DNA of 64,000 bases from Dehalococcoidia bacterium (GTDB lineage: Bacteria > Chloroflexota > Dehalococcoidia > DSTF01 > CAZFGZ01), in NCBI GenBank assembly GCA_049678585.1, contig JBAUEL010000110.1, positions 11,221 through 75,220 of the forward strand. The letters are read 5' to 3'. Made by a program: the position numbers and the translations under genes. This document shows, in pieces, positions 7,675-39,967 of this stretch (the stretch's first letter is position 1; each line of letters opens with the position of its first letter). Below the pieces are notes generated by a model. It was given only the letters and a program-made list of their open reading frames with translations. It made no database searches and had not been told where the DNA came from.

Positions 7675-8451
7675 TTAGCGGCGGTGACTATCTCTGCGTG
7701 TGGCCGCGACGGCCATGAAGCTCCCATTGAGCCTCAATATCCGGCGGGCCGCTTGCTCGAACGGCGGGTAGACGCGGGCCAGGGGGTTGGGAACCAGCGG
7801 GAGCAAGGCGCAGGTGACTACGTCGGCAGTAGCGAATCCCTGACGCTGTAGCAGAGCACGAACTTGCCCCAGCGCAAAATAGATGCTGGCGGGCGGCGCC
7901 ACCCCCGGGTAGGAACGGACGGTATACCTACCATTCCAGAGGTGAAGACGTCGCAAGACGTGCGGCAGGATGTACAGGCTGTGCATATTGGGGAGCCCCA
8001 GGACGACCTTTTCTCTGCAGACCCGACACAGCTCACCGATCGCTTCCTCGTAGGCGACCATATGGTTGTACACCCAAACACTGATCCCTAGGTCGAAGGC
8101 ACCGCTGTCGAACGGTAGCCTCCTAGCGTCGGCGAGGGTCACCCGAGCCGGTGGATAGCGCCGCCGAACCTCGGCCAGCATCCCCGAGCTGCTGTCGACG
8201 GCCGTAACCGTCGCTCCCATATCCATAAGGAGGCCCGTGAATCGGCCGGTGCCGCATCCCACGTCCAGGGCGCTGATCCCTCGCAGCTCGTTCCTCCCAA
8301 TCGTCCGGCGAACAGCCTCGCGCTGTAGGGCGTCCAGGACGCTGCCCCCAGGCGACGCGAATCGAGCCTCGTCGTAGTCGGCGACAACAGCCTCGTTCTG
8401 GTAGAACCCTTGTGTCACAGCGTCCGGGTCTTCAGCCGACGAGTTGCGCAT
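7675..8451 (-). CDS. Class I SAM-dependent methyltransferase
   Basis: Motif I LDVGCGTGRF followed by a Rossmann-like pattern (TVTAVDSS...). Length 258 aa. Its 5' end overlaps the stop of the upstream GT1 by 20 nt. Confidence 0.75.
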   Translation of the reverse strand: MRNSSAEDPDAVTQGFYQNEAVVADYDEARFASPGGSVLDALQREAVRRTIGRNELRGISALDVGCGTGRFTGLLMDMGATVTAVDSSSGMLAEVRRRYPPARVTLADARRLPFDSGAFDLGISVWVYNHMVAYEEAIGELCRVCREKVVLGLPNMHSLYILPHVLRRLHLWNGRYTVRSYPGVAPPASIYFALGQVRALLQRQGFATADVVTCALLPLVPNPLARVYPPFEQAARRILRLNGSFMAVAATRRDSHRR

Positions 8452-9532
8452 AATGCTCCTCGAAGCGCGCGGCTATTCGATCCAGGCTGAACGCGTCGGC
8501 CCTCTCCGCAGCCAGCCGCCCGGCTCGTGCTACTCGCTCACGGCAAGATGCCAGGCTGAGCAGGGCATCCGCGTAGGCGCACGGGTCTCCCTCTCGACCC
8601 CGCTCGATGAGGAAGCCCGTCTCCCCCTCCGAAAGGAGATCGGGGATGCTCCCCACGCGGGTCGACAGCACCGCACAGCCTGCGGCCATAGCTTCCACGA
8701 TGGTTAGGGGCGGATCGAGGACGCCGGACGCGGTTTGGAGGGGAAAGACCAGCACGTCCAGGGAGCGAAGGAAGGAGGCCGCCTCCACCTCGCCCTGGAT
8801 GCGGACGTGTGGTTCAAGCCCCTGTTCCCTGATGAAAGTCATTAGCCACCGAAGCTCCTCCTGGAGCTCTCGAAACAGTGAGACTTGAGAGACATCGACC
8901 GCCAGCTCGAATTCCACCTGGGGGCGGGAAGCCAGCACCGCAGGGATGGCCTGGACGAACGGTCGCAGCCCTTTCCTGCGCAGCGGCGGGCCCATGAAGC
9001 CCACTCTAAACCTCTCCCTCGCGAGGCCCGACTCGGCAGCCGGGGCAGAGCGGAACCGGGCCACGTCGACGGGCGGGGGGATGTGGACCGATCCACAGGG
9101 GCGGTCACGGCCGTCAGTCGACGTGTACACGACCAGGTCTACGAATCGGAAGTGGTGTGAGCCGTGGGTCGCTGAGAGGGCTGAGTGCACATGAGGTACA
9201 GCGGCGATGCGGCTCACCGCGCTTCCCAGCAGGGCCACCTTCGGGTCCGCGGAGAGGCTGTGCACGAGATGCACCCCCGGGCGGCGCCGACGTCGAGCGA
9301 AAAGTAGCAGAACGGACAGGGCAAACCGGGGGCCTCCGAGTGACCCCAAGCGCTTCCCCCCCACCGTCTGCGCCTCGTAGGGGCCACCCCGTAGCAGCCC
9401 TCCCACCGGTTGGGTGACCACCTCGACGCGATGGCCTCGCCTCGTCAGCCCGAGAGCAAGGGTCTGCGCATACATGGCCGCGCCGTTCCCTGGCAGCCCC
9501 AAGCCGTATCCCAAGAGACAAATGTCCATCAT
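8432..9532 (-). CDS. Glycosyltransferase family 1 (GT4-like)
   Basis: C-terminal VFPLQ...EAMAAGCAVLSTRVGSIPDLLSEGETGFLIE is the GT1 E-X7-E region. The start is taken at MMDICLLGYG (ATGATG at 9532/9529), which overlaps the TGA stop of the upstream membrane-protein gene (ATGA coupling). The ORF track extends 23 codons further upstream. Confidence 0.8.
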   Translation of the reverse strand: MMDICLLGYGLGLPGNGAAMYAQTLALGLTRRGHRVEVVTQPVGGLLRGGPYEAQTVGGKRLGSLGGPRFALSVLLLFARRRRRPGVHLVHSLSADPKVALLGSAVSRIAAVPHVHSALSATHGSHHFRFVDLVVYTSTDGRDRPCGSVHIPPPVDVARFRSAPAAESGLARERFRVGFMGPPLRRKGLRPFVQAIPAVLASRPQVEFELAVDVSQVSLFRELQEELRWLMTFIREQGLEPHVRIQGEVEAASFLRSLDVLVFPLQTASGVLDPPLTIVEAMAAGCAVLSTRVGSIPDLLSEGETGFLIERGREGDPCAYADALLSLASCRERVARAGRLAAERADAFSLDRIAARFEEHYAQLVG

Positions 9533-11796
9533 GGGTTCCCGGAAACCTCGTCCGGCGCTGCTGGCGCGACAAGGTAGGCGGTTACATCGCCTCCCTCCCA
9601 CAAGGGCCGGAAGTAGGGAGACCCCTCCAGCCAGGCTAGCGTCGCGAAGTCAGCTGGGTCACCGTACACCGGATTCTTGAGGTGTCGATCGACCAGGGCG
9701 AAGGTGATCCCATGTTCCCGGATCAAGTCCTCGCTGACGAATGACTGCAGCCCGGACGCGTCGCCGGGGGGATTGCCCTGGAGGGTGAAGAGCAGGGTCA
9801 TCTCGGCCCGAGGCGATCCCGGCTTCACCTCAGCCACGACCATGTCCTCGCCGGGAGGCAGCGTGAGCGTCGCCTCCTCCCCTTCACCGCCGAGCAGGTC
9901 GATGAAGACGCCGACCTGCCAGGGGCCGAGGTGGTCCCCGCCGCTGAATGGGGAGGCCTGCTGCACCGGCACGACTACCTTCGTGACCGGGCCGGTCTCG
10001 GATTCCAGTCTCAGGACGACGGTCACGTACTCGCCGTGCTCAGGCAGCGTGACCTCCTTGACGACGCGGAGACCGTCCAGCTCGTACGTACGCCGGTCAA
10101 CGAAGGCACCGCTCTCCACAGCGGTTACCGATTCCTGAAACTCGGCGTCGGCCAGCGTCACCCGCCGCAAGGCGGGGCCAGCGCCGTACTCAATCTCGAT
10201 CAGACTGTCATCGAGATAGAGGAGGTGCTTTAGCTCCCCGTTGTCGATGCCCAAGGCCGGATCCATCGGCACGTCCCCAGCGATGTAGGCGTCCGCGACG
10301 AAGACTAAGCCGTTGGTCGTCACCCGGTCCCCTGCCAGTAGGGCGCTGCCGATGAGTGTCTGCGCCCGCCGCTCAGCCCTCGTGAATATTCTGCGCTGGC
10401 TGGCCTCATACACGCGCCGGCCGGCCAGTCCCTCGGCCCACCATCCCAGCCCCCTCAAGTTGGCCACACCCGCGCCTGCCGGAGCGTTCCGGTCCACAGC
10501 CTCGATGGCCGTCACGTGCTCCGGCCGCAGGTACCCGTAGTACACCGCCGCCTCCTTCACCAGAGAATGTCCTCTCCACATCGTGAAGGTAGCCAGCGAG
10601 GCCAGCACCGCCAGGACACAGACGGAGCCCACCGCTGCAATCCGCCTGCCGCGGGCAGCCTGCACGAGGGCGTCGGCGCCCACGGCAAAGCCGAGCCAGA
10701 CGGGCACATAGAGGAAGTAGAGCGACCGTCTCCCTACTGCGCCCGTAACCAGCATGTCAAGGGCGAAGGGGACGAAGAACAGGGTCAAGGGGAGCGCGCT
10801 TGCAACGGGACTCCGGCGAAAGAGGACGACAGCCCCCGCAAGGGCCACAAGTGCGAGGGCCGCCCAGAGAAGAGGATGGTCGGCGGGGAAGGAGAAGAAG
10901 TAGCGGAGGTTGTCCCATCCGCCGCGCAAACCATCCAACGAGTGGACGACCGTGAGATACATTTCGCTCCCGACGGCGCTCGACTGGCGGAGGTAGATGG
11001 GAACGAGGGGCAGCGATAGGACCGCTGCGACGAGCACCGCCGGCAGCAGCCTAACCACTCTCCCGCGAAGGCGACCTCCAACGGTGAGGGCGACGGCGGC
11101 GAAGGCGAGCGCCGTGGCCACATAGATGAACGCACTGATCTGGTGGGTACCCACCAGCGCCCACGAGGCGAGCGCCAGTGCGAGCACCTTCCCTCTATCG
11201 AACGATGGCGCCGTCAGGATCTCATGGATGAGGTAGAAGCACAGCGTGAACAGGCCAACACCGACCAGCGTCAGGAAGCCCCAGGAGACCGCGTCCATGT
11301 ACCTCAGGGAGAACATGAAGGGAAGCGAGACTGCGAGGGCGACGGCCTTCCCCGTGAAGCGAGAGCACAGCAGATAGAACGGGACACCAATCAGCACCGA
11401 GGCCGCCACAGCCAGGAGTTTCGTCGCTTCGAGGGGCCCGAAGAGCTGCACCATGGGCCAGAGCGCAACCCCGACCAGCGGCGGCCGCCGCAGCCCCTCA
11501 CCGGTCACATCAGTCCCGAAGAGCTGTTGCATCGTCGCCAGGTAGTTTCCCGCATCGATGCCCAGCGCGACCTGCGACCGGAGGGTAACCATCCGGTAGG
11601 CGAAGACCGCGGCGAGCGCCACCGCGAGGGCAATGGCGAATCGATGGCGCCCCAGCCATCGAAGCGACACCCGGCTCAGCTCCGGCAGCCTCGTTACCTG
11701 TTCTGTCAGTGCCCAGTCTTGCAGCACTGGACCCGATCCCTCGGACAGAGTGCGATGCCCAGCACGGGCTCGTCCTTGCGCGATACGTCGCCACAC
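9529..11796 (-). CDS. Polytopic membrane protein with a large C-terminal extracytoplasmic domain, likely a GT-C-fold glycosyltransferase. It is a paralog of the 24736..26334 gene.
   Basis: At least 10 hydrophobic helices in the N-terminal 430 aa, then a roughly 330-aa soluble domain. The N-terminal helices align with the 24736 ORF (GVPFYLLCSRF vs AVPFYLILRRG; FTLCFYLIHE vs LTVYWLMDG). Confidence 0.55.
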   Translation of the reverse strand: MWRRIAQGRARAGHRTLSEGSGPVLQDWALTEQVTRLPELSRVSLRWLGRHRFAIALAVALAAVFAYRMVTLRSQVALGIDAGNYLATMQQLFGTDVTGEGLRRPPLVGVALWPMVQLFGPLEATKLLAVAASVLIGVPFYLLCSRFTGKAVALAVSLPFMFSLRYMDAVSWGFLTLVGVGLFTLCFYLIHEILTAPSFDRGKVLALALASWALVGTHQISAFIYVATALAFAAVALTVGGRLRGRVVRLLPAVLVAAVLSLPLVPIYLRQSSAVGSEMYLTVVHSLDGLRGGWDNLRYFFSFPADHPLLWAALALVALAGAVVLFRRSPVASALPLTLFFVPFALDMLVTGAVGRRSLYFLYVPVWLGFAVGADALVQAARGRRIAAVGSVCVLAVLASLATFTMWRGHSLVKEAAVYYGYLRPEHVTAIEAVDRNAPAGAGVANLRGLGWWAEGLAGRRVYEASQRRIFTRAERRAQTLIGSALLAGDRVTTNGLVFVADAYIAGDVPMDPALGIDNGELKHLLYLDDSLIEIEYGAGPALRRVTLADAEFQESVTAVESGAFVDRRTYELDGLRVVKEVTLPEHGEYVTVVLRLESETGPVTKVVVPVQQASPFSGGDHLGPWQVGVFIDLLGGEGEEATLTLPPGEDMVVAEVKPGSPRAEMTLLFTLQGNPPGDASGLQSFVSEDLIREHGITFALVDRHLKNPVYGDPADFATLAWLEGSPYFRPLWEGGDVTAYLVAPAAPDEVSGNP

Positions 11797-11989
11797 GATT
11801 ATGGGTTAGCACGGATGCCGACACTATTGGGGGAAACCCTGTCTCCCCCGGTCCGACATCCCGCACAATGCTGCCGCGCGAACCCTGCTTCTAGGGGGGA
11901 TGAACCCGCAGGATGCGGGCAGTCCCCTATCGCCGCCGGCACTCTGCCCATCGATACTGTAGCCCGAGTAGAAGGACGCTCACATAGCC

Positions 11990-12826
11990 GTGCAGAGTCT
12001 CCGCGCCAGCAACGAAAGAACCTACGACGCCTCGGCAGCGCGATGGGGCCGGCGTGTCTCGAAGCGGGTAGTTCTTAGCGGAGGAAGGGGTTACAGGCGA
12101 CGCAACGAGAGGTTTGCCCGGTTTCTGGGCCTGACGGCCGACGCCCGGGTCATCGAGTTCGGGAGCGGCATCGGCACCCTTACGCTGACCCTCGCCGCCC
12201 TTGGATGCAGGATGACCGCAACCGATGTCTCACAGGGGGAACTCGATCTACTTCGGGGAAACGCCGAGACGCTGGCCCTCGCCGACCGACTCGAGATGGA
12301 GAGGGGAGATCCCGCCTCCCTCCCCTCCGACTGGCAGGGGACGTTTGACTTCGCCGTGACGTCCAGCGTGCTCCACCACGTCGAAGACCCCTTCGAATTC
12401 GTGCGGTCCATGGCACGGTTCGTGAAGCCGGGCGACTGGTGCGGAGGCCTCGAGCCGAACGCCGCATCCCCCGTCATGCGCTTGATCCAGGAGGTCGGGT
12501 TCTGGCTGCCCAGGTACGTCTTGGGCGACCGTGCTGCGGAGAAGAACTTCCACACCAGCACGGCGCACCGTTTGCACGCCTACGCGACGCGCGCGGGGCT
12601 GCAGAACGTGGAAGTGGTGAAAGTGGACCTTTTCCCCAGGCCTCTCCTGAGCCGCCTGCCGTTCCTCCACGCTGTCGAAGACCGCCTCACCTCATTGCGG
12701 CTCGTCAAGCCCCTCTGCATCACGCTGTTCTGGAGGGGGCAGAAACCGGGCCCGTCAGGCGACGGCCGGTGCCGACCGCGTGGTTACCAGTTCCGCGCGG
12801 AGGGAAGCCCAGCCGTGGGGGTATGA
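11990..12826 (+). CDS. Class I SAM-dependent methyltransferase
   Basis: Motif I VIEFGSGIGTL followed by DFAVTSSVLHHV (motif II/III-like). GTG start at 11990. The true start is uncertain because there is no internal ATG before the methyltransferase fold. Confidence 0.6.
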   Translation: MQSLRASNERTYDASAARWGRRVSKRVVLSGGRGYRRRNERFARFLGLTADARVIEFGSGIGTLTLTLAALGCRMTATDVSQGELDLLRGNAETLALADRLEMERGDPASLPSDWQGTFDFAVTSSVLHHVEDPFEFVRSMARFVKPGDWCGGLEPNAASPVMRLIQEVGFWLPRYVLGDRAAEKNFHTSTAHRLHAYATRAGLQNVEVVKVDLFPRPLLSRLPFLHAVEDRLTSLRLVKPLCITLFWRGQKPGPSGDGRCRPRGYQFRAEGSPAVGV

Positions 12827-14098: not shown

Positions 14099-14710
14099 CT
14101 ACCAGCTCCTGTACTCCTCGCTCATCCTGCGGTACTCGATGAGCGGCTCGTCGATGGCCTTGGCGGCCAGGATGATCTGACACGATTCCTCCAGGCAGGA
14201 GACCCACTGGAACGCCTCGTCCAGCGTCTGACCGATGGCGAAGCAGCCGTGCCCCCTCAGCATGACGATCTTGTACTCCCGCAGGGCCGGCGGGATCTTC
14301 TTCTCAAGCTCGCCCGAGCCCGAGGCCAACTCCGCGGCGACGACAGGGACCCTGTGCAGCAGGTAGGACCCCTCGACGTCGATGGGCACGATCTCATCGC
14401 GCGAGAGGGAGAGGGCGATGGCGGTGCGCGGGTGGGCGTGGAGGATGGCCAGAGCGGGCGTGGCCAGGTAGATGGCGCGGTGTACGACCAGCTCGGTGGA
14501 GGCCAGTGCGATGCCGCTGTCCGGCTTCTCCAGCCCCGTCTCGATGAGGTCGCCTTCTTTCAGGCGGCCCAGCATGGCCCCGCGTCGCTTGATGACCACG
14601 CGGTCGCCGAAGCGCATACTCATGTTGCCCCCGTGCGAGGAGATCAGCCCGCCCACGTACAGGTCGCGGCCGATCTCCTGGAACTGGCGGAATACCTGCT
14701 TGTCGATCAT
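14099..14710 (-). CDS. Class II aldolase/adducin-family protein (L-fuculose-/rhamnulose-phosphate aldolase-like)
   Basis: The class II aldolase fold shows in the GNMSMRFGDRVVIK / GIALASTELVVHRAIY / AILHAHP regions, with His zinc ligands. 203 aa. Confidence 0.7.
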   Translation of the reverse strand: MIDKQVFRQFQEIGRDLYVGGLISSHGGNMSMRFGDRVVIKRRGAMLGRLKEGDLIETGLEKPDSGIALASTELVVHRAIYLATPALAILHAHPRTAIALSLSRDEIVPIDVEGSYLLHRVPVVAAELASGSGELEKKIPPALREYKIVMLRGHGCFAIGQTLDEAFQWVSCLEESCQIILAAKAIDEPLIEYRRMSEEYRSW

Positions 14711-14725
14711 GCTCGCTCTCCGGTC

Positions 14726-16507: not shown

Positions 16508-16549
16508 GCGCGCACCTCGCGTCCGGCCGCTCTGACTACGGGGGGCCTA

Positions 16550-17773
16550 TCAGCCGGTCGGAAAGCCGCCGCCTGCCCCCGAGGCCGCGCCACGCTCGGC
16601 GGCCACCTTCTGCTCGTAGCCGCTGGCCCTGAGGGCGGCCAGGGGGTCGGCGTCCAGCCCCATCTCCAGGCGCACCTGGGCCAGCAGGGGGCGGACGTCG
16701 GTCTCGAAGGCGTCAGTCAGGGCGCGATGGGCGCCCAGCACATCGCCGGCGGCCTGCCGCTCCGCCAGGTCCTTTCGGTCAACGATAAGGGCGCGAGCAT
16801 AGGCGGCCTGCACGTTGAGGACCGATTGCACCATCGCCTCGATCTTGGGCTCGATGTTGTGGCTCTGGTCGATCATATAGGCCACGTCACGGGCCGTCTC
16901 GCCCGCGGCCACCAGTTCATTGTAGATGAGGAACAGCTCGAAGGGATTAACCGTGCCCACGATGAGGTCGTCGTCGGCGTACTTGCGGGCGTTGAAGTGG
17001 AAGCCGCCCAGCCTGCCCTCGTCCAGCAGGAAGGCCACGATGTGCTCGATGTTCGTCCCCTGGGGGTGGTGCCCGGTGTCCACCAGGACCTGCGCCTGAG
17101 GCCCCAGCTTTGTCGCCAGCGCGTAGGCAATGCCCCAGTCGTCGATGTCCGTGTGGTAGAAGGCCGGCTCGAAGAACTTGTACTCGATGAGCATGCGCAT
17201 GCCTGCCAGCATGGCCGCGTACACCTGGCGGAGCGAGTCCAGCAGCCGTTGCTTGCGCTGGCGGATGGAGTCCTGCCCGGGGTAATTGGTGCCGTCGGCG
17301 AACCAGAGGCTCAGGAGCGTCGAGCCGGTGGCCCGGGCGATCTCCACGCACTCCAGGATATGCTCCACGGCCTGCCGCCGCACCGCCGGGTCGGGATGGC
17401 ACACGCTGCCGAGCCTGTAGGCGTCGTCCTGGAACAGGTTGGGGTTGATGGCGCCGATGCGCAGCCCCAGCGACTCCGCATGGGCCCTCAGTTCGGCCCA
17501 GTCGTCCACCTTATCCCAGGGGATGTGCAGCGCCAGCGACGGGCAGATGCCGGTGAGCCTGTGCACCATGGCCGCATCGGCCAGCCTCTCGCGCACGTCG
17601 CGGGCGGCGCCGGGCCAGGGGAAGGTCTTGAAGCGGGTGCCGCTGTCGCCGTAGCCCCACGAGGGGGTCTCGATGCACTGCGCCTTCAGTGCGCTCTTGA
17701 CGCCCTCGATGTCCAGGCCACGGTCGGCTAGCCGCGCCGCCAGCATGTCGTATGCTTCGGAATGATGGTCCAC
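16550..17773 (-). CDS. rhaI: L-rhamnose isomerase of the xylose-isomerase-like TIM barrel type (actinobacterial / P. stutzeri type)
   Basis: 407 aa. N-terminal [19 protein letters not shown] and internal HIPWD ... [16 protein letters not shown] fit the metal-dependent sugar isomerase TIM-barrel family. It sits next to a GH78 rhamnosidase. Confidence 0.65.
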
Positions 17774-17802
17774 GTCAAGCCTCCCCCAGAGAGCCGGTCT
17801 CT

Positions 17803-18240
17803 CTAATCGACCGCCAGCGCCGTCACGCTCCGCGGCTCGATCTTGAGGATGACCCGTCGCTCCCCTGGCTGCCGGAACGGATACCGGTCCTGTCCCATGT
17901 ACTGCTTGGCCAGGCTATCGATGTGCTCCTCAGCGCCCTCACGCGTTATCTCGACGACGCGTCCCCGTATCGCTGCGAAGGCATAGGGGTTCGCCTGACT
18001 GATCACGTCCAGAGCCACCCGAGGGTCGCGGCGCACGTTCCGCGACTTCTGTCGATCCTCCGCCGTGTTCACCAGGATGTGCGTCCCGTCGTAGTCCACC
18101 CACACCGCCGTCACCTGAGGCGACCCGTCGGGCATCAGCGTCGCCAGGTGCGCGATGTTGGGCTCCTCAAGCAGCCTGCGTACCCCTGTCGATATCGTCG
18201 CCATCATCGCACCTCCTTGCGGCAGTGCTCTGCCGATCAC
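17803..18240 (-). CDS. PPOX-class (pyridoxamine 5'-phosphate oxidase-like) probable F420-dependent enzyme
   Basis: [32 protein letters not shown] matches the Rv1155-like split-barrel family. The true start is probably MMATIS at 18207. Confidence 0.6.
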
Positions 18241-18267
18241 CCGTGGGATCGCCTGGCCATCTCGCCC

Positions 18268-20871
18268 TCACGCTTTCGCCTCCAGCTCCAGTTCGCGCGG
18301 CCCCTGGACGACAAGCGTGATAGCCTCCTCGCCGCGGATGACGTGGGATACCCCCGCTCTGGCCTGTGCCGCCGCATCCGTGAGCACGTCGCCCACGTCG
18401 CCCACCCGGAGGGCCCTCCAGCCGCCGGGCCGCGAGGGCAGGGTGATCTCGGCGGTGCTGCCTTCGGGGATGGCGGCCGAGAGCCTGAATTCTTCATCAC
18501 GCTTCTCCCAGGCCACCCGGATGTCTCCCTTCACCGTAGGGAAGACACCGCGCGCCCAGTCGAGGCCGGCGGGCTGCGGGGCGATGCGGGCGCGGGCGAA
18601 GCCCGGCTCCAGGGGCACCACGCCCAATACCTCAGTGGAGAGGTCGAAGGTGGGCGTGGTGGACCAGGCATGGCACTGGCTGGCCACCGGATGCCAGACC
18701 TCCCAGATAGAGGTAGCGCCGGCCTCGATCATGGCGCCCCAGCGCTGGCGGATGTTCCGGACCAAGTCGTCGTACCTGTCAGCGCGGGCCAGGGCGCGGT
18801 GGACGTGGTGCATGAAGAAGGGCTGCGCCAGCACCACGTGACGCTCCTCATCGAAGTCCACCTGGTAGGGCGCGGAGAGCATGCCTATCGAGGTCAGGGC
18901 CAGGCGGGACTCGTCGAGGATGGTGGCGAAGATGCGCTCCCACCGCTCCGGTGGGGCGATGTCGTAGGCGATGCAGACGGCGTTGGCCTGCTGGCTAAGG
19001 CGGCGGCTCTGCTGGCCGTCTACGCAGGCGTCCACGTAGGCGCCCCGCTCCTCGCTCCACAGGCGGGCGTTGACGGCCTCGCGGATGCTCTGGGCGCGGG
19101 TCGCGCATCTCTCCGCAATGGCAGCGAGGCCCAGCCTGCGGGCCAGGTCCTCGACCACGCGCAGGGTCCGGTAGTAGAGGGCGTTGTAGACGGTGCCCTC
19201 GCCGCGGCGGTCCACCTCGGCCCAGTCCACGAAGTTCCACTCCGGCACCCTGTTGAGAAGGCCGTGCTCGTCGATGAAGCGGTCGAACCAGTCCAGGGCC
19301 CGCAGTACCGAGGGCAGGAGCTCGGCGGGCATGTCCAGGTCGCCGGTGTACTCCACGTACCGCCCCAGGGACATGATCCAGCACAGACACCAGTCAGGGA
19401 TGGTGAGGAGGCCCGCCGCCGCGAAGTCGCTGGGAGTAGCCATCTGAGTCATCCCGTCGGGGCGCTGGCTCTGGGCGACCTGCCGTAGCATCTGGGCCAC
19501 CAGCGCGGTGTCCCCAAAGGCCACGTAGTTGGTCAGCGACTCCACGTAGGCGTCGCCGATCCACTGGCGCTGCTCGCGGGAGGGGCAGTCCTCGAAGCCA
19601 TCATGCATGCAGAGGCGCAGGGTGTGAGCCCCGGCCCACCAGATGCGGTTGAGCATCGGGTCCGAACACTCGAAGGAGCCCCGCTCCTCCACGGGGTACA
19701 GCGTCTCGTTCAGGGCGACCCTGTGGAGGGTCACCGGCCCCCGCGGGTTGCGGACGGTGATCTGGAGGTAGCGGAAGCCCGCCCACTCGAACTTCTCCCA
19801 TCTCTGCCGGCCCTCCCGGGCGATGTAGCGGTGCACGGTGGGCGACCAGATGGGGGTGCGCGGGGGCGGCTCTGGCCGGTCGTCCTTGAGGCGCTCGGCG
19901 TAGGCGATGTCGAGGACCGTGCCCGCCGACGCGCTCACGTCGAGGCGCGGGTAGCCGGTGACCACGTCGCCGAAGTCCAGCACGATGACCGCGTCGCGGC
20001 CTTCGCCCGGGGCGATGGTGGCCGGGCCGGCCGCCCCAGGCAGCGCCTCGGCGCCCTCGATCCGGCGGGCCGTCGGCTCCAGCAGCACCTCGCCGCTCAC
20101 CTGCTCGAAGATATCGGGGTCATCCTTCAGCGGCTCCACCTCGCCCAGGGTGGCAACGGCGGCGGGCAGCCGCTCTTCCTCCGAGAGGAACGGGATGGCC
20201 CGCGGGACCATCACCGGGAAGGGGCGGACGGGGCTGGCCAGGTTCAGGGGCGGGACGGTGAGCACGACAGCCTGCTCCCAGCCCCCGTGGTCGAGTTCCG
20301 GGGACGCCCACTCGCGCAGGGCCTTCCCGGCGTCGAAGACCTCCATGAAGCCCACGGCGCCCGGGAGGGTGTCCTGCTGCCAGGCCTCCTCCTTGCGACA
20401 GCGCCAGGAGTCGTCGGAGTCGACCTGTACCTGGCTCCCGTCCGCCAGCACGACATCACACTGGAAGAAGACGCTGCCGCAGCCGAAGGCGGCCAGGTGG
20501 AACCGCGAGGGAAGCTGGTACCAGGACATGTCCCTCCCGTAGGAGTGCAGGAGGAGCGCCACGACGTTCCGTCCGGGGCGCAGGTGGGCGGCGATGTCGC
20601 GGGTATCGAAGTACTGGAAGGCGGGGTCGCAGCGGGCCGGGCCGCGGCCCACGAAGGCGCCATTGACATAGAGATGGTACCGGCCGTCGGCCGAGGCATG
20701 CGCAAGGGCCTCACGGGGTGCCGAGGCAAGCTCAAACGTCTTGCGGAAGTACCAGAAGGCGTTGCGATCCTCCGAGAGGTCCGGTCGCTGCTCGCCCCGC
20801 AGGGGGAAGACGCCGCTGAGGGGACGGGGCGGCGAGATCCACTGGGCACGACGTACGAACCGGCTGGTCAT
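18268..20871 (-). CDS. Alpha-L-rhamnosidase (GH78)
   Basis: 867 aa. The N-terminal region is typical of bacterial rhamnosidase N-domains (FWYFRKTFEL...GRYHLYVNGAFVGRGPARCDP). The central six-hairpin catalytic domain carries conserved Trp/Asp-rich segments (GFEDCPSREQRQWIGD). Confidence 0.75.
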   Translation of the reverse strand: MTSRFVRRAQWISPPRPLSGVFPLRGEQRPDLSEDRNAFWYFRKTFELASAPREALAHASADGRYHLYVNGAFVGRGPARCDPAFQYFDTRDIAAHLRPGRNVVALLLHSYGRDMSWYQLPSRFHLAAFGCGSVFFQCDVVLADGSQVQVDSDDSWRCRKEEAWQQDTLPGAVGFMEVFDAGKALREWASPELDHGGWEQAVVLTVPPLNLASPVRPFPVMVPRAIPFLSEEERLPAAVATLGEVEPLKDDPDIFEQVSGEVLLEPTARRIEGAEALPGAAGPATIAPGEGRDAVIVLDFGDVVTGYPRLDVSASAGTVLDIAYAERLKDDRPEPPPRTPIWSPTVHRYIAREGRQRWEKFEWAGFRYLQITVRNPRGPVTLHRVALNETLYPVEERGSFECSDPMLNRIWWAGAHTLRLCMHDGFEDCPSREQRQWIGDAYVESLTNYVAFGDTALVAQMLRQVAQSQRPDGMTQMATPSDFAAAGLLTIPDWCLCWIMSLGRYVEYTGDLDMPAELLPSVLRALDWFDRFIDEHGLLNRVPEWNFVDWAEVDRRGEGTVYNALYYRTLRVVEDLARRLGLAAIAERCATRAQSIREAVNARLWSEERGAYVDACVDGQQSRRLSQQANAVCIAYDIAPPERWERIFATILDESRLALTSIGMLSAPYQVDFDEERHVVLAQPFFMHHVHRALARADRYDDLVRNIRQRWGAMIEAGATSIWEVWHPVASQCHAWSTTPTFDLSTEVLGVVPLEPGFARARIAPQPAGLDWARGVFPTVKGDIRVAWEKRDEEFRLSAAIPEGSTAEITLPSRPGGWRALRVGDVGDVLTDAAAQARAGVSHVIRGEEAITLVVQGPRELELEAKA

Positions 20872-21180: not shown

Positions 21181-22392
21181 ATGGCCAAGGCAGTGAGCGC
21201 CAGCACCAAAGTCCCCGTCACAGGCCCTGAATCGTCCGTCTCCCCAGAGACGGAGCGCGAGGCAGGCCTGGTCGATGTTTCCATCGTCATGCCCTGCCTC
21301 AACGAAGAGGAATCGGTTGCGACCTGCGTGACCAAGGCCCGTCGCTGGCTGGAGCGGGCAGGGCTCAGCGGCGAGGTCATCGTCGTCGACAACGGGTCCG
21401 AGGACGCCTCTGTCCGACACGCCACCCAGGCGGGCGCGAAGGTGGTCCATGAGCCCCGTCGCGGCTACGGCAGCGCGCTCCTGCGCGGGATCGTCGAGTC
21501 GCGCAGCCGCTACGTGGTGATGGGCGACTGCGACGACACCTACGACTACACGGACCTGGACCCCTTCATCGAGGCCCTGGAGGGCGGCGCCGACATCGTA
21601 GTGGGCAACAGGTATGCGGGAGGAATCGTCCCGGGCGCCATGACCTGGAGCCACCGCCACATCGGGACGCCGGTGATCACCTTCCTGCTTCGTCTGTTCA
21701 GCGGCGCCCGACTGGGAGACAGCCAGTGCGGGCTGCGCGCCTTCACCCGGGTGGCGTTCGAGCGGCTGGAGCTCCACACGCCGGGCATGGAGTTCGCCTC
21801 CGAGATGATTCTGAAGGCCGCCCGAAAGGGCCTGCGGGTGGTGGAGGTTCCAATAGCGTACTACCCGCGCGTCGGCGAGGCGAAGCTGAGGACGTTCCGC
21901 GACGGCTGGCGGCATCTCCGGTTCCTGCTCCTGATGAGCCCGCACTTCCTGTACACGGTCCCCGGCATCCTGCTGGCGCTGACGGGATCGCTGATCCTGA
22001 CCCTGGGGCTGGCTTCTTCCGAGGGCATTGTCATCGGCCCTGTGGTGTGGCAGCCGGTGTTTGCGGGCTCCATCCTGATGATCCTGGGGATCAACGCGCT
22101 CATCTTCAGCGGCATCGCCAACCTGTACACCACTTCGCTCGGTCTCACGCAGCCCGACCTGATTCATGCACTGGCCTGCCGCCTGCTTCGCTTTGAGGTA
22201 GTCATCGTTGGTGCCGCCGCGCTCATCGCCATAGGCATTGGGCTCGACATCTTCCTGCTCGTGGAGGACGTCTCGGCCGCCGCGGTCCCCAACAGGCTGG
22301 GTCTGGCCGCCGTCGCCCAGGCGATCATCCTGAGCGCGGGCAATTTCGGGCTGGCAGGCTTCCTGGCAAGCCTGTTGAACGGCGCCAAGTAA
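21181..22392 (+). CDS. GT2 polyprenol-phosphate sugar synthase (DPM1/GtrB/ArnC-like) with C-terminal TM helices
   Basis: VSIVMPCLNEEESV ... VVDNGSEDAS ... GDCDDTYD (DxD) ... DSQCGLRAF is the GT2-A signature. Four C-terminal hydrophobic helices follow. The start is taken at ATG 21181 (MAKAV); the ORF track extends to 21037. Confidence 0.75.
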   Translation: MAKAVSASTKVPVTGPESSVSPETEREAGLVDVSIVMPCLNEEESVATCVTKARRWLERAGLSGEVIVVDNGSEDASVRHATQAGAKVVHEPRRGYGSALLRGIVESRSRYVVMGDCDDTYDYTDLDPFIEALEGGADIVVGNRYAGGIVPGAMTWSHRHIGTPVITFLLRLFSGARLGDSQCGLRAFTRVAFERLELHTPGMEFASEMILKAARKGLRVVEVPIAYYPRVGEAKLRTFRDGWRHLRFLLLMSPHFLYTVPGILLALTGSLILTLGLASSEGIVIGPVVWQPVFAGSILMILGINALIFSGIANLYTTSLGLTQPDLIHALACRLLRFEVVIVGAAALIAIGIGLDIFLLVEDVSAAAVPNRLGLAAVAQAIILSAGNFGLAGFLASLLNGAK

Positions 22393-22444
22393 GGCTCGAC
22401 CAGCAAGCCGGGCCCGGCCGACCGGAAGGATCCGTGGAGAGGGT

Positions 22445-23647
22445 ATGGATACCACCACAAGGCCCCTGAGGATCCACGTATTCACCGATTACTTTCGTCC
22501 CCACGTCGGCGGCGGCGTCGAGCGGGTGGTGGAGGAGGCGTGCCGTCGGCTGGCGGAGCAGGGACACCTTGTGCGGGTGTTTACGTTCAACACTGGCGGG
22601 GCACCGGCGTACGAAGTCATCGGTGGCGTCCATGTTCATCGGGCCCGCGCACTCCAGTTGACACGCCTCATCCGCATGCAGAGCTCGATCTCACCGAGTC
22701 TGCTGCCCCTCGCCTGGAGGCTGGGCCGATCCGAGCCCCCCGACGTGCTCCACGCCCACAACCTGTTCTTCTTCTCAACCATCGTGGCGGTGCTCCTTCG
22801 CCGCCTGCTCAAGAAGCCGCTGGTCACCACCCTGCACCTCGGTCCGCTGGACCAGCTAGGCGGTCCCTTCCGGGTTCTGGCATCGTCCTATGAGCGGGTC
22901 CTGGGACGGGCTATCGTCCGCAGGAGCGACCGGATCATCGCCGTGAGCAACGCGGTCGGCGCCCACGCTGCTCACCTGGGAGCCAAGCCCGAGACGGTGC
23001 GGGTCATCCCGAACGGGGTGGACGCGCAGCAGTTCCAGCCCGGCGAAAGGAGCGCAGACGGGACGTTCCGGATCGCCTGTGTCGGCCGCCTCATCTTCAA
23101 CAAGGGCCCGCAGTACCTCGTGGAAGCAGCGCCTGAGGTGCTCCGTGGCCATCCACAGGCGGAGTTCGTGATGGTGGGAGACGGGCCCCTGCGCGCCCGG
23201 CTGGAGGAACGTGCCCGCCGACTGGGGATCAGTCACCGCGTTACCTTCCTGGGGACTCGGTCCGACGTAGCCGCGATCCTGCAAACGTGCGATGTGCTGG
23301 TACGCCCTTCCCTTCTGGAAGGGATGCCGCTGACGGTCCTGGAGGCTATGGCCTGCGCTCTGCCGGTGATCGCCACGCCGGTCTCCGGCACCGCAGAGCT
23401 GGTGCGGCACGGTGAGAACGGCCTCCTGGTCCCGCCGACCGACCCCGCGGCCCTGGCTTCGGCCATCCTGCGGCTGATAGAGGACGTGCCGCTGCGGGAG
23501 CGGCAGGGCAGGAAGGGGCGGCAGTTGGTAGAAGGCGGCTACACCTGGGACGCCGTCGCCAGGCAGACGCTGTCCGTCTACGAAGAGCTGGTGCCCCGCC
23601 CGAGTGACGAGGCGGCGACGGCGGAACCCCTGGCCAGGGCAGCGTAG
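22445..23647 (+). CDS. Glycosyltransferase family 1 (GT4-like)
   Basis: N-terminal HVFTDYFRPHVGGGVERVV. C-terminal SLLEGMPLTVLEAMACALPVIATPVSGTAELVRHGENGLLV (E-X7-E). An RBS GGAGAGGG precedes the ATG. Confidence 0.8.
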   Translation: MDTTTRPLRIHVFTDYFRPHVGGGVERVVEEACRRLAEQGHLVRVFTFNTGGAPAYEVIGGVHVHRARALQLTRLIRMQSSISPSLLPLAWRLGRSEPPDVLHAHNLFFFSTIVAVLLRRLLKKPLVTTLHLGPLDQLGGPFRVLASSYERVLGRAIVRRSDRIIAVSNAVGAHAAHLGAKPETVRVIPNGVDAQQFQPGERSADGTFRIACVGRLIFNKGPQYLVEAAPEVLRGHPQAEFVMVGDGPLRARLEERARRLGISHRVTFLGTRSDVAAILQTCDVLVRPSLLEGMPLTVLEAMACALPVIATPVSGTAELVRHGENGLLVPPTDPAALASAILRLIEDVPLRERQGRKGRQLVEGGYTWDAVARQTLSVYEELVPRPSDEAATAEPLARAA

Positions 23648-23659
23648 AAGGAGTTGCGC

Positions 23660-24739
23660 ATGGTTCGGGTAGGGAAGCCGCTCTCCGTGGGCATTGTCGG
23701 GGCGGGCTGGGTCGCCACCGCCCGGCACATCCCTGCCTTTCAGCGCGACCCTCGGGTCCGTGTGGCCGCCCTGTTCGACCTCGCTCCCGGGAAGGCAGGG
23801 GAGGTCGCCCGGCAGTATCGCATACCGAGTGCGTTCCATGACCTCTCCGAGTTCCTGGCCACGGGCCCGGACATCGTCGCTATCTGCACTCCGCCGTGGA
23901 CGCATGCTCCCATAGCAGTAGAGGCGCTACACCGCGGCTGCCACGTCCTGGTCGAGAAGCCCATGGCGATGTCCTCGGAGGAGGCCTCCGCGATGATCGA
24001 TGCGGCGAGAGAGGGCGGCGCTCGCCTCTGCGTCGCCCACAACTTCCTCTTCTCGCGCTCGATGCGAAAGGCCCTGAGCCTTATCGAGCGTGGCATGGTC
24101 GGGGAGGTGCAGCACGCCATTGCCCTTCAGCTCAGCAGCCCCAGGCGGCGGCTGCCGCGCTGGTACCCAGACCTGCCCGGCGGCCTCTTCTTCGACGAGT
24201 CGCCCCACATGATCTACCTGCTGCGCCGATTCTTGGGCGATCTCTCTGTAGCGCAGGCCTGGGCCGAGGCCGCCCCGCCCGGGATGGACCAGAGACTGGA
24301 CCGGGTAGAGGCTCGGCTCCAGAACAGCGAACACAGCGCCCACCTCAACATGTCCTTCCGCTCCCCTATCTCGGAGTGGCTGGTGGCGGTTGTAGGGACT
24401 CAGCGGGTGCTGGTGGTGGACGTGTTCCGGGACATCCTGGCGGTCCAGAAGCCCGATGGCGCACACGGCTCCGCCGACGTGCTGAAGAGTTCTTCCCGGC
24501 TCTTCCTCCAGGGGCTGATGGGCTTTGCGACCTCCGGGGCTCTCTTCGCCACGAAGCGGCTGCTGTACGGCCATGAGACGTTGGTCCGCCGCTTTATCGA
24601 CGCCGTCGTGGATGGCGGAGCCGTCCCCGTGGCGCCCGAGGAGGGCATGGCCGTGGTGCAGACCATGGAATCGATCCTGAAGCAGGCGTTCACTTCTATG
24701 GATAGCACCAAGAGCGCCGGCAGGGTTCCCACCGCATGA
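23660..24739 (+). CDS. Gfo/Idh/MocA-family NAD(P)-dependent sugar oxidoreductase
   Basis: Rossmann motif GIVGAGWVA, then CTPPWTHAPIAVEALHRGCHVLVEKP. An RBS GAAGGAG lies 6 nt before ATG 23660. The stop overlaps the next gene's ATG (ATGA). Confidence 0.8.
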   Translation: MVRVGKPLSVGIVGAGWVATARHIPAFQRDPRVRVAALFDLAPGKAGEVARQYRIPSAFHDLSEFLATGPDIVAICTPPWTHAPIAVEALHRGCHVLVEKPMAMSSEEASAMIDAAREGGARLCVAHNFLFSRSMRKALSLIERGMVGEVQHAIALQLSSPRRRLPRWYPDLPGGLFFDESPHMIYLLRRFLGDLSVAQAWAEAAPPGMDQRLDRVEARLQNSEHSAHLNMSFRSPISEWLVAVVGTQRVLVVDVFRDILAVQKPDGAHGSADVLKSSSRLFLQGLMGFATSGALFATKRLLYGHETLVRRFIDAVVDGGAVPVAPEEGMAVVQTMESILKQAFTSMDSTKSAGRVPTA

Positions 24740-26334
24740 GCCGCGCCCGAAAGAACCGCAAGCGCACCCGGACGAAACAGCCACAGCAGCAGCAAGCGCA
24801 GCGGCGGTGGACGGAGAACCTGAATCCGAGCCGCTATGCGCTCGTCGCCGTCCTGCTCGGAGTCGCCGTCTATCGACTGGTCATGCTCGCTGGCGAGGCC
24901 GCCCCGCCCGGAGCCGACCCGGGCAACTGGCTAGCCTACACCCACGGGCTCTTCGATACGTCTGTCAAGGCGGCCGAATCCATGTACTTCCCGGTGACCC
25001 TGATCGTCCTCAAGGCCCTGCTGGTCTTCCTGCCGCCGCTCATGGCGGCCAAGGTGCTGGGCGTCGGAGCGTCCGTCGCGGTGGCCGTACCGTTCTATCT
25101 CATCCTGCGCAGGGGGTGTTCGCCCCTCCTCGCTGCGGGCCTCACCCTGGCGTTCGTGCTTGCAGGCTACCAGCAGGAGACCCTCTCCTTCGGTGGCTAT
25201 CCTCAGCTCCTGGCCACGGCCTTCCTGCTTCTTACGGTGTACTGGCTGATGGACGGCCTCATCTCCGGCAGGCGGCGACCCCTCCTGCTGGCAGCCGCCA
25301 GCACCGCTCTGATCGCGGGCACGCATCACTTTACCCTGGCGCTCCTGGTGCCCACGGTGTCGATCCTCGCCCTGGCGCTGGTGGTGCAGGAGCGCCCGAG
25401 CATAGGGCCGTTCCTTCGCAACGCCGGAGCCTGGATGGTCGCCGCGGCGCTGTTCGCTCTTCCCTTCCTGCCGTGGTACGTCCGCTTCTTCACCCTTCTG
25501 GACGGCAACCCGGCGAACGCCCTCGGCCTCACTCTGATGAACATGGATAGGGTTATCTCGTACGTCTTCGAGAATAACGAGGTGTTCTGGACGGCCCTAT
25601 TGATCATCGCAGGCGTATTGCCGTTGCTGCCGTTCTTCGGCCGGAGGGCCGCGGGAATCAGACCTGCCGTGCTGGCTCTCCTGGCCGGTCCGTTCCTTGC
25701 CTTCGCCTTGACGAACGAGGTTCGGAGCTTCCAGTTCATCCAGGCTGGCGTGGTGCTCTCGCTCGGCCTGCCGGTGGCCGCCATCGAGCAGCACCTCGCT
25801 CAGACCGAGCTGAGGGTAGCGGTGCGGCGGTTGGAGAGGCTCTCCCTGGCGCTTGGGGCTGCCACTATCCTGATCATCGTAGGCGGTTCGGGACACCAGC
25901 GGTTTACGGAGACCATCGCCCGGTACCAGATAGTGGACGATTCGGCCCTGGAGGCGCTGAACTGGCTGCGCGAGCGGAGCCCGCCCGGCGCGATCGTCAT
26001 GGCCAATGATTCACCCACCAGGGTGTCCTACGCCTGGTGGGTGGAGGGATACGCAGAGCGCCCTACCTACAGCCTCATCGAACCGGCGTTCCTGTCGTTT
26101 GCGGAGGAGAAGGAGCAGGCCGCCCTGGCGCGCCGTCTGCTTGAGCAGGACACATCGCCGGCCGAGGTGCAGTCTCTACTTGAGAGGACCGGCATCAACT
26201 ACATCTTCCTGGACAAGCGAACCGGCGGCAGGTTCAGGCCGCTGCTGTCCAAGGCGATGTTCTACATCTCCCTCGAGAATGAGCACTTCGCCATCCTCCG
26301 GTACCCTGGCGCGAGGGTGGAGGCGAACCGCTGA
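24736..26334 (+). CDS. Polytopic membrane protein, likely a GT-C-fold glycosyltransferase. It is a paralog of 9529..11796.
   Basis: 532 aa with a basic N-terminal tail, about 11 TM helices and a roughly 150-aa C-terminal soluble domain. Helices align with the 9529 ORF. Confidence 0.55.
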   Translation: MSRARKNRKRTRTKQPQQQQAQRRWTENLNPSRYALVAVLLGVAVYRLVMLAGEAAPPGADPGNWLAYTHGLFDTSVKAAESMYFPVTLIVLKALLVFLPPLMAAKVLGVGASVAVAVPFYLILRRGCSPLLAAGLTLAFVLAGYQQETLSFGGYPQLLATAFLLLTVYWLMDGLISGRRRPLLLAAASTALIAGTHHFTLALLVPTVSILALALVVQERPSIGPFLRNAGAWMVAAALFALPFLPWYVRFFTLLDGNPANALGLTLMNMDRVISYVFENNEVFWTALLIIAGVLPLLPFFGRRAAGIRPAVLALLAGPFLAFALTNEVRSFQFIQAGVVLSLGLPVAAIEQHLAQTELRVAVRRLERLSLALGAATILIIVGGSGHQRFTETIARYQIVDDSALEALNWLRERSPPGAIVMANDSPTRVSYAWWVEGYAERPTYSLIEPAFLSFAEEKEQAALARRLLEQDTSPAEVQSLLERTGINYIFLDKRTGGRFRPLLSKAMFYISLENEHFAILRYPGARVEANR

Positions 26335-26349
26335 TGGCATCCACGAACC

Positions 26350-27459
26350 ATGGCTCACGCTGACATGACATCGCTGGCGGAGAAGCCGCCCGAGGCTGGA
26401 GCCACGGCCCAACGGGCACCTGCCGCCGCCAGGAGGAAGCTCGGCTGGGGCGGCGGCCTTCTGGTATCCCTGGTCGTAGGGTTCGCGGTGCTGACGGGCC
26501 TTGGGCTCTACGCCGACATCGGAGACGTCTCCTCGACCCTTCTCGGGTTCGATTGGGGCCTGATGCCGGTGCTTTTCGGATTGACCGCCCTCAACTACGC
26601 GGTGCGGTATCTCCGCTGGCGGAGGCTGTTGCGTCTCACCGCCGGCCAGGAACCGGATCTCTTCCGCGACCTGCTGGTGTTCTTCGCGGGCACCGCCATG
26701 ATCCTCACACCGGCGCGGCTGGGCGAATGGGTGAAGAGCTATTACGCTCGGGAGCTGCACGGGGTGCCTGTGGCGCGCACGGCGCCGATTATCCTCGCAG
26801 AGCGGGTCAGCGATTCGCTGGTCATGCTCCTCCTGGCCACGACCGGCCTCTTCCTGTTTGGCTGGGGCACGGCCGTTTTCGTCACGGTCATAGTTATCGC
26901 AGTGGCGGCCATCGTGGCGCTTCGACACCGTGGGCTCGCTTCGCTTCTCCTGCGGGGCGCGAGGAGGTTCCCGCCGGCGCAGCGCCTGCTGCCGCCGATA
27001 GAAGACTTTCACGAGAGTTCCCGCATCCTCTTCTCGCTGTCCGGACTTTCCTGGGCCTTCGGTCTGGGCCTGGTCGCATGGACTCTGGAGTGCCTGATTT
27101 TCTTCCTTGTACTGGTGGGCCTGGGCAATCCGGGGACCTGGGAGCTGGTCGCCCAGGCGGCCTTCATCTTCCCGGTTGCCACGCTTGCGGGGGCGCTCTC
27201 GCTGCTGCCCGGGGGAATAGGGGTGACGGAAGGCGGCATCGTGGGCATGACCCAGGCGATTCTCGGCGCCTCGCGAAGCCTCGCGGCCGCCTCAGCATTG
27301 CTGGTGCGGGCCTTGATCCTGGGCTTTGGCTTCGCATTGGGCCTGGCGGCGCTGGCAATACTCAGTTGGCGGCCGCCCTCGAAGGTGGGTGAGAGTGGCC
27401 CCCTGACCCAGGAGAGGCTCGTAACCGCCGCCGGATCCATCAAGGGCGATTCGAGATAG
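26350..27459 (+). CDS. UPF0104 / lysyl-PG-synthase-TM (MprF flippase-like) family membrane protein, paralog of 12918..13904
   Basis: 369 aa, about 8 TM helices, with the conserved YLRWRRLL loop after TM2. Confidence 0.6.
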   Translation: MAHADMTSLAEKPPEAGATAQRAPAAARRKLGWGGGLLVSLVVGFAVLTGLGLYADIGDVSSTLLGFDWGLMPVLFGLTALNYAVRYLRWRRLLRLTAGQEPDLFRDLLVFFAGTAMILTPARLGEWVKSYYARELHGVPVARTAPIILAERVSDSLVMLLLATTGLFLFGWGTAVFVTVIVIAVAAIVALRHRGLASLLLRGARRFPPAQRLLPPIEDFHESSRILFSLSGLSWAFGLGLVAWTLECLIFFLVLVGLGNPGTWELVAQAAFIFPVATLAGALSLLPGGIGVTEGGIVGMTQAILGASRSLAAASALLVRALILGFGFALGLAALAILSWRPPSKVGESGPLTQERLVTAAGSIKGDSR

Positions 27460-29466: not shown

Positions 29467-29483
29467 GAGAGGGGAAGCGGACA

Positions 29484-39960: not shown

Positions 39961-39967
39961 CGTCCGC

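Follow-up and report, generated by a model that had tools for sequence, protein, structure and literature searches.

Genes of the two loci

The window analysed here, a 64,000-nucleotide stretch of contig JBAUEL010000110.1 from a Dehalococcoidia bacterium (G+C content of about 66%), carries two loci in which a large polytopic membrane protein (BIG_1 in locus 1 and BIG_2 in locus 2) lies close to a stand-alone, flippase-like protein of the MprF-type family PF03706, or UPF0104 (UPF_1 and UPF_2; Table 1). A first-pass annotation had described them as two paralogous modules for glycosylation with lipid-linked sugars, and Pfam and NCBIfam searches recovered all the genes that it named at or very near the positions it gave. 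Locus 2 is a tight five-gene operon for a family 2 glycosyltransferase (GT2), a family 4 glycosyltransferase (GT4), a Gfo/Idh/MocA oxidoreductase, a membrane glycosyltransferase of the C type (GT-C, BIG_2) and a PF03706 protein. Its intergenic gaps of 53, 6, -4 and 15 bp, with the start of BIG_2 overlapping the Gfo/Idh/MocA stop by 4 bp, are too short to leave room for a further gene.

The GT2 matched the NCBIfam models for AglJ (1.6e-40), Dol-P-hexose (dolichyl phosphate hexose) transferase (2.4e-29) and PpgS (2e-22), all of them under the curated (equivalog) cutoffs, as well as the Protein Data Bank (PDB) sequences of DPMS (5mlz, 1.4e-15) and ArnC (1e-10). A DCD motif was found at residue 116, and the C-terminal ~150 residues (249-399) are hydrophobic, with about four hydrophobic helices. 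At family level the protein is a predicted polyprenyl-phosphate sugar synthase with a C-terminal transmembrane (TM) region, which bears out its earlier assignment to the DPM1/GtrB/ArnC type. Homologues align from residue 1 of the start at 21181, and a longer open reading frame (ORF) from a GTG at 21037 is possible. For the oxidoreductase, the best NCBIfam matches were UDP-GlcNAc 3-dehydrogenase and inositol 2-dehydrogenase, both far under the cutoff.

UPF_1 and UPF_2 scored 100.8 and 139 bits against PF03706 (gathering cutoff of 33.4), and 17.5 bits were obtained with the MprF model NF033480 (cutoff of 600). They share the PF03706 domain with MprF, whereas the C-terminal aminoacyl-phosphatidylglycerol synthase domain (DUF2156), whose presence would have spoken against the first-pass annotation, was carried by neither. 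Classical MprF was therefore ruled out, and PF03706-only proteins beside glycosyltransferases should not be called lysyl-phosphatidylglycerol synthases. No Pfam family for a GtrA/SMR or MATE flippase was found among the genes of either locus.

Table 1. Features of the window (nucleotide positions) and, in the last five rows, gene neighbourhoods of BIG homologues in other genomes (locus numbers)
Feature	Position or locus	Strand	Remarks
MT_a, S-adenosylmethionine (SAM)-dependent methyltransferase, last gene of the BIG_1 operon	7675-8451	-	PF08241 (1.3e-19)
GT4_1, downstream of BIG_1, same operon	8432-9601	-	PF13692 (1e-21)
BIG_1, 755-aa polytopic paralogue of BIG_2	9529-11796	-	No family match; actual start codon probably about 23 codons further in; extra beta-sandwich inserted in C-terminal domain
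WWAEG motif of BIG_1	10429-10443	-	W453 and G456 invariant in alignment A3
MT_b, SAM-dependent methyltransferase, divergent from BIG_1, paired with UPF_1	11990-12826	+	PF13489 (1e-17)
UPF_1, stand-alone PF03706 flippase-like protein, 328 aa	12918-13904	+	PF03706 (1.3e-28)
GT2, polyprenyl-phosphate hexosyltransferase-like (DPMS/AglJ/ArnC type)	21181-22392	+	PF00535 (5.6e-25)
GT4_2, cytoplasmic glycosyltransferase, GT-B	22445-23647	+	PF13692/PF00534/PF13439 (1e-34 to 1e-46)
Gfo/Idh/MocA NAD(P) sugar oxidoreductase, variable tailoring slot	23654-24739	+	PF01408 (1.4e-27)
BIG_2, 532-aa polytopic GT-C, unclassified family, OST-like	24736-26334	+	No family match; small OST-type (oligosaccharyltransferase) C-terminal domain
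Asp61 codon of BIG_2, motif P-P-G-A-D-P-G-N-W-L, first loop after TM1	24916-24918	+	Candidate catalytic or metal-binding residue
WWVEG motif of BIG_2	26035-26049	+	Aligns with WW of OST WWDYG
UPF_2, stand-alone PF03706 (MprF-type, 'PplT'/COG0392) flippase-like membrane protein, 369 aa	26350-27459	+	PF03706 (3e-40), TIGR00374 (1.3e-20)
Third glycan cluster, Wzx/Wzy type	37732-54166	.	Gene types as around BIG_1 orthologues elsewhere (L027-L030)
O-antigen-polymerase-like protein of Wzx/Wzy cluster	42358-43863
MurJ/Wzx-like flippase of Wzx/Wzy cluster	44168-45754
GDP-mannose 4,6-dehydratase of Wzx/Wzy cluster	49470-50735
Bac_transf phosphoglycosyltransferase of Wzx/Wzy cluster	52359-53036
Dehalococcoidia/Chloroflexia	L001, L003, L005, L006, L008		Order GT2, GT4, Gfo, BIG, PF03706
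Dehalococcoidia/Chloroflexia, contigs ending early	L002, L007, L010, L011		Part of the cassette that fits the contig
Dehalococcoidia	L004 6112-12328		GT2 (78% identity), different GT4 (28%), methyltransferase for Gfo, BIG (62%), PF03706 (71%)
Acidobacteriota, Acidimicrobiia	L015, L017, L021, L022		GT2, GT4 (±Gfo) upstream of BIG; PD40 beta-propeller genes alongside; no PF03706
Bathyarchaeia	L014, L016, L018, L020, L023, L024		GT4 directly before BIG; second BIG paralogue upstream in 5/6 (not in the 2.1-kb L018)

Fold and C-terminal domain of the BIG proteins

As had been proposed, the paralogy of BIG_1 and BIG_2 is clear: they share 28% identity over 461 aa (E = 3e-17). The lengths of the family fall into two groups, of about 520 and about 730 aa, and one member is annotated as 'glycosyltransferase family 39 protein', the others having no informative name. 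BIG family members passed no Pfam threshold, and their sub-threshold matches were only to PTPS_related, DUF6798, DUF6541, AftD and PMT_2, which we take to be families of Pfam's GT-C clan. A search of 5.8 billion proteins yielded 46 and 20 matches for the two BIG families, mostly labelled 'hypothetical', with Dehalococcoidia metagenome-assembled genomes among the named sources; a repeat search using the BIG alignment returned only the same 46 proteins. The exhaustive hidden Markov model (HMM) search with both families gave 1,225 cluster representatives at E<=1e-3 and 342 at E<=1e-30. Fold searches were unambiguous: both proteins are predicted to adopt a polytopic GT-C fold, with equally high scores for AftA, PMT and ArnT and with PimE and glycosylphosphatidylinositol (GPI) mannosyltransferases also among the matches, and a transporter or polymerase fold was rejected.

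The acidic residue that the first-pass annotation expected in the first loop corresponds to Asp61 of BIG_2. It is invariant in the 32 sequences of both paralogue families (alignment A1), and 33 of the 34 homologues compared, which span four phyla (Chloroflexota, Acidobacteriota, Acidimicrobiia and Bathyarchaeia), have it; the one exception is a frameshifted ORF. The same comparison showed conservation of 'P[PS]GAD.GN[WY]L', an acidic residue in 'Y..E....WGGYP' (148), Arg330 and '[YG][AG]WW[VI][EQS]G[YF]'. In a sequence comparison with the second acidic (DxD/DxE), TIxE/SVSE and DK/MI motifs of OSTs, the acidic residue at 148 was conserved, 'T.E.R' around residues 326-330 was confined to the bacterial BIG_2 clade, and an 'E..Q...A' helix was present. 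The N-terminus of BIG_2 is strongly basic (10 K/R in 32 residues), which fits an N-terminus inside the cell, so that the first loop and the C-terminal domain should face outward. Asp61 would thus be the conserved acidic residue of the first extracytoplasmic loop known from GT-C glycosyltransferases.

A more specific kinship was revealed by the C-terminal domain, for which a profile was built from 14 homologues (alignment A4). When compared with the whole PDB sequence set, its best match was 3vu0 (AfAglB-S2, E = 0.006), and AfAglB-S1 (3vgp) was third. The alignment with 3vu0 places 'gWWveGy' on 'SWWDYG', 'eAL.WLr' on 'EALNWMK', and the helix-strand 'e..all.e.giryl' on 'EAMKIVEKRKVRYV'; hhalign of A4 against STT3A/B segments (E = 2.5e-5) left the register unchanged, with SWWDYG aligned. 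An OST-type C-terminal core domain is present in BIG, and at the position equivalent to WWDYG the family has WW[VI][EQS]G[YF], in which W, W and G are kept and D and Y are not. These profile alignments show the BIG C-terminal domain to be a homologue of the OST domain that lies outside the cytoplasm, and this, together with the basic N-terminus, agrees with the outward orientation that had been anticipated for it. By fold and domain homology, BIG is an unclassified GT-C family and a remote relative of STT3/AglB/PglB: a family absent from Pfam and NCBIfam, yet with structure-level and weak sequence-level kinship to oligosaccharyltransferases. Literature searches turned up no relevant work on OST or WWDYG in Chloroflexi.

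Conservation of the neighbourhoods and the remainder of the window

A scan seeded with alignment A2, with one genome per species, found 24 loci. Neighbour genes were assigned by tblastn with the window proteins, by HMM search with PF03706 and by Pfam checks, and the PF03706 counts exclude BIG matches (frameshift-fused BIG-UPF ORFs in L002 and L006). The five-gene order of locus 2 was kept, in full or as far as the contig reaches, in at least nine independent Dehalococcoidia/Chloroflexia genomes at 35-80% protein identity, and this synteny is far beyond chance. In L001-L008 and L010, BIG is directly followed by PF03706, and this holds in the Dehalococcoidia/Chloroflexia clade wherever the contig continues past BIG. 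The Dehalococcoidia cassette in which both the GT4 and the tailoring gene differ (L004) shows GT2, BIG and PF03706 to be the constant core, and GT4, Gfo and methyltransferase to be the variable, glycan-defining part. No neighbour of the GT-C is conserved more widely than the GT4, which was found beside it in Chloroflexota, Acidobacteriota, Acidimicrobiia and Bathyarchaeia. GT4 and GT-C are an ancient pair, GT2 joins them in bacteria, and PF03706 is clade-specific yet locally invariant.

Several further genes were observed around the homologues. PD40 (TolB-like) beta-propeller genes flank BIG in L022 (8870-9805 and 11491-12345) and L015 (6793-7683), and their products could be acceptor or partner proteins. 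A polysaccharide deacetylase, which precedes the cassette, and a sulfotransferase lie near it in L022. In L015, the gene directly upstream of BIG (7659-8879) encodes a polytopic protein of 406 aa that carries the motif 'YIDFPYEHLP', had no Pfam match at E<=0.05 and presumably resembles DUF2029/GT87. In Bathyarchaeia, the GT4 is flanked by two divergent BIG paralogues (L023 6183-8567, 8881-9990 and 10022-12148; also L014, L016, L020 and L024), the upstream one with the motif variants 'GAD[IL]GLHN' and 'WW[FIV]SGF'.

Locus 1 had been taken for a duplicate of the module in locus 2, a view that the neighbourhood evidence ruled out. GT2 is missing from it, the alignment of GT4_1 with GT4_2 is confined to the C-terminal 220 aa (30% identity), and the two UPF0104 proteins, described earlier as clearly paralogous, gave no match in BLASTP (E = 64); they are members of one Pfam family and not recent paralogues. 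The only recurrence of the MT_b/UPF_1 pair divergent from BIG_1 was in an almost identical strain (L031/L033). BIG_1 orthologues at greater distance (53-65% identity) adjoin a Bac_transf phosphoglycosyltransferase, GT4, NDP-sugar epimerases, methyltransferases, Wzx and Wzy_C, a single orthologue having none of these genes, and PF03706 was not found beside them in the Wzx/Wzy-type neighbourhoods (L027-L030). Elsewhere, UPF_1-type proteins (44% identity) come after a methyltransferase and a 1,088-aa Wzy_C-TPR protein (L034/L035). BIG_1, GT4_1 and MT_a, the last of which is 32% identical to the methyltransferase in the tailoring slot of L004, are a second OST-like transferase operon, and MT_b and UPF_1 are a separate neighbouring pair. 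To speak of two paralogous modules is therefore an overstatement: there is a single conserved cassette and, besides it, another OST-like transferase, BIG_1, which probably serves an undecaprenyl-PP-glycan (undecaprenyl-diphosphate-linked) pathway.

Two further observations concern locus 1. In L034 (32-2753) and L035 (2839-7993), PF03706 is recurrently paired with an outward-acting glycan transferase of another fold (Wzy_C, O-antigen-ligase-like, -TPR). Compared with L033 (Ga0209979_1011724), BIG_1 is a local divergence hot-spot (window 9500-11999): the flanking DNA is 95-99.6% identical, and DNA identity within BIG_1 falls to 61-94%, with its minimum at 9750-9999, which codes for the C-terminal beta-sandwich. 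Protein identity is 99.6% for MT_b, 98% for UPF_1 and 75.6% for BIG_1, which suggests allele replacement or diversifying selection on an exposed domain.

The genes between the two loci are rhamnose-catabolic (alpha-L-rhamnosidase, RhaA-like isomerase, class II aldolase and aldehyde:ferredoxin oxidoreductase), so that a biosynthetic role was ruled out and their earlier dismissal as unrelated was justified. Within this cluster (14099-20871), the class II aldolase is paired with a tungsten-type aldehyde:ferredoxin oxidoreductase (14726-16507), and the two may form a lactaldehyde-oxidising route. The complete Wzx/Wzy cluster (39968-54166) further holds four GT4s, two epimerase/reductases and two methyltransferases. 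At its end lies a polytopic membrane protein of 653 aa (37732-39693, minus strand), which has a soluble C-terminal domain and a 'FAADTFYY' motif after the first TM helix. It had no Pfam match, showed no relation to the BIG family by hhalign and is a candidate for a further GT-C-like transferase outside the known families. A 1,321-aa adenylate cyclase-AAA-TPR protein is encoded upstream of locus 1 (3165-7130), and locus 2 is directly followed by a dCache-HAMP-HD-GYP sensor phosphodiesterase and then a CBM96/disaggregatase-repeat protein (27619-30449).

Possible pathways for locus 2 and known systems

Gene content, BIG paralogy, the GT-C fold, the homology of the C-terminal domain to OSTs and synteny were established directly, and on this basis locus 2 is tentatively read as a lipid-linked, extracytoplasmic glycosylation pathway resembling the archaeal Agl pathway, with a probability of roughly 45%. 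This reading is preferred because it accounts for all five conserved genes. The membrane-anchored GT2 would, judging from its family, load a first hexose onto polyprenyl phosphate at the cytoplasmic face; the GT4 would add a second sugar, and a sugar would be modified by the Gfo/Idh/MocA enzyme or, in the sister cassette, by the methyltransferase. The lipid-linked glycan would then be translocated by the stand-alone PF03706 protein, a predicted flippase, and BIG_2 would attach it outside the cytoplasm, the likeliest acceptor being a protein. That flipping occurs, what each enzyme takes as its substrate, which way each reaction runs and the kind of acceptor are what we infer from the genes.

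Several points weigh against this pathway. When full-length BIG sequences or profiles were compared with the PDB sequence set, neither a GT-C nor a solved OST was returned, such matches coming only from the C-terminal-domain profile, and Pfam STT3 (PF02516) had no match at E<=1 among the 32 BIG members. With WW[VA]EG in place of WWDYG, BIG lacks the Asp through which OSTs contact the Thr/Ser of the sequon. The trio of GT2, UPF0104 and GT-C, whose co-conservation the first-pass annotation had predicted, holds together across Dehalococcoidia/Chloroflexia, whereas PF03706 was not found next to BIG outside this clade and hence is not obligatory, and the Acidobacteriota GT2 orthologue (L022) has no TM region. 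The GT4 and Gfo enzymes could act on something besides the lipid-linked intermediate. To our knowledge, no activity has been demonstrated for any member of the BIG family or any stand-alone PF03706 protein.

A bolder version, which we regard as rather doubtful, holds that BIG_1 and BIG_2 represent an unrecognised, deeply branching sister family of STT3/AglB/PglB, comprising about 1,200 50%-identity clusters across Chloroflexota, Acidobacteriota, Acidimicrobiia and Bathyarchaeia, that glycosylates proteins en bloc from a polyprenyl-monophosphate-linked glycan using WWxEG as the acceptor-binding motif, the glycan being flipped in Dehalococcoidia by the stand-alone MprF-type protein. If true, OST-type protein glycosylation would be much more widespread in bacteria, well beyond the few lineages with PglB, with extra paralogues in Bathyarchaeia, and a genetically tractable candidate would be available for the long-sought polyprenyl-P-glycan flippase. 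We know of no domain of life in which the identity of the flippases for polyprenyl-phosphate-linked sugars has been proven. Since PF03706 is the constant partner of a lipid-charging GT2 and an outward-facing transferase in a compact operon, locus 2 would make a clean flippase test system.

The equally high fold scores for AftA, PMT and ArnT would also suit a Gtr-type, three-component system, as the first-pass annotation had proposed. In such a system the GT2 would make a polyprenyl-P-monosaccharide, PF03706 would flip it in place of GtrA, and the GT-C would add the single sugar to an existing envelope glycan or protein, with the GT4 and Gfo enzymes serving another step, e.g. building the acceptor. 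This is possible, if on the unlikely side: it leaves out the GT4, with no explanation of why this gene is the most widely conserved GT-C neighbour, and the tailoring enzyme inside the operon (Gfo or, in L004, a methyltransferase), which is swapped together with the GT4; moreover, it is OSTs specifically that the C-terminal domain and the WW motif resemble.

Improbable, in our judgement, is a glycolipid pathway in which the GT4 glycosylates a membrane glycerolipid (as GpgS/HexS or PimA), PF03706 flips it and the GT-C extends it outside with a GT2-made polyprenyl-P-sugar, following the logic of PimE and lipomannan. PF03706 has been tied experimentally only to glycerolipids, through MprF, and genetically through gpgSDF/hexSDF (PMC12713373). 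The fold matches to PimE and GPI mannosyltransferases, the deacetylase before the L022 cassette and weak matches of UPF_2 to the GpgF model (1.4e-9) and of GT4_2 to the GpgS model would fit as well, these last two being far under cutoff. The gpgSDF (P. aeruginosa) and hexSDF (C. difficile) operons encode a GT4, a deacetylase and a UPF0104 protein, with the flippase step still unproven (PMC12713373). They resemble locus 2 in combining a GT4 with a stand-alone flippase-like UPF0104 protein; however, they have glycerolipid substrates, a deacetylase, which neither locus of the window holds, and no GT2 or GT-C. That the genes are mere envelope-gene neighbours in a glycan-rich region is very improbable, since those of locus 2 overlap or nearly abut and keep their order in many genomes, even though BIG_1 and UPF_1 do not stay together once the orthologues become more distant.

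Among known systems, the Gtr-type ones (GtrB/GtrA/Gtr*, CsbB/GtcA/YfhO and the MATE variant of Kelly et al. 2024) likewise combine a GT2, a flippase and a GT-C that works on the outer side of the cytoplasmic membrane. Three-component systems differ in the family of their flippase, and none of those flippases has been directly demonstrated (PMC11127046). Locus 2 differs in having PF03706 instead of GtrA/SMR or MATE, two extra conserved genes (GT4 and oxidoreductase) and a GT-C with an OST-type C-terminal domain. Compared with the STT3/AglB/PglB enzymes (GT66), BIG is only 12-14% identical, fails the Pfam STT3 model and has the motif WW[VI][EQS]G, and BIG_2, at 532 aa, is shorter than any characterised OST.

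The closest mechanistic precedent for the Agl-like pathway is Haloferax volcanii, where, on dolichol monophosphate, AglJ charges the lipid, AglG, AglI and AglE extend the glycan, AglP methylates it, AglM oxidises it and AglB transfers it after flipping (PMC3871713). In both, if locus 2 is read as proposed, a GT2 charges a polyprenyl monophosphate, glycosyltransferases and a methyltransferase or dehydrogenase tailor the glycan, and an OST-type GT-C transfers it once flipped. In H. volcanii the link between GT2 and PF03706 is a fusion (AglD), whereas locus 2 has a separate flippase-like gene; BIG has no PF02516 match and has WWxEG for WWDYG, the elongating enzyme is a GT4, the host is bacterial, and locus 2 is known from its genes alone.

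The first-pass annotation had taken the arrangement to be generally undescribed, and its account is largely right as observation and partly right as interpretation, but not new in kind. Makarova, Galperin and Koonin (2015) described UPF0104/arCOG00899 proteins as homologues of the MprF flippase, found also as the C-terminal domain of AglD, in a conserved archaeal neighbourhood with an AglD-like GT2 (arCOG00897) and a PMT/STT3-like membrane enzyme (arCOG00563); they noted a second context, with a deacetylase and a glycosyltransferase, and predicted flippase activity for all COG0392 members (PMC5898192). COG0392 is now named 'predicted membrane flippase AglD2/YbhN', and a preprint on PplT reports PF03706-type domains fused to GT-A, GT-B, O-antigen-ligase and methyltransferase domains, Chloroflexi included. 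The archaeal neighbourhood has the same three protein classes as locus 2, and there too UPF0104 is predicted to flip a lipid-linked saccharide; this neighbourhood is a prediction for archaea only, without the GT4 and tailoring genes, and the likeness is at the level of protein classes. What is new at locus 2 is a GT-C family, OST-like and unclassified, whose genes in Chloroflexota share an operon, in a fixed arrangement, with those for a stand-alone MprF-type protein.

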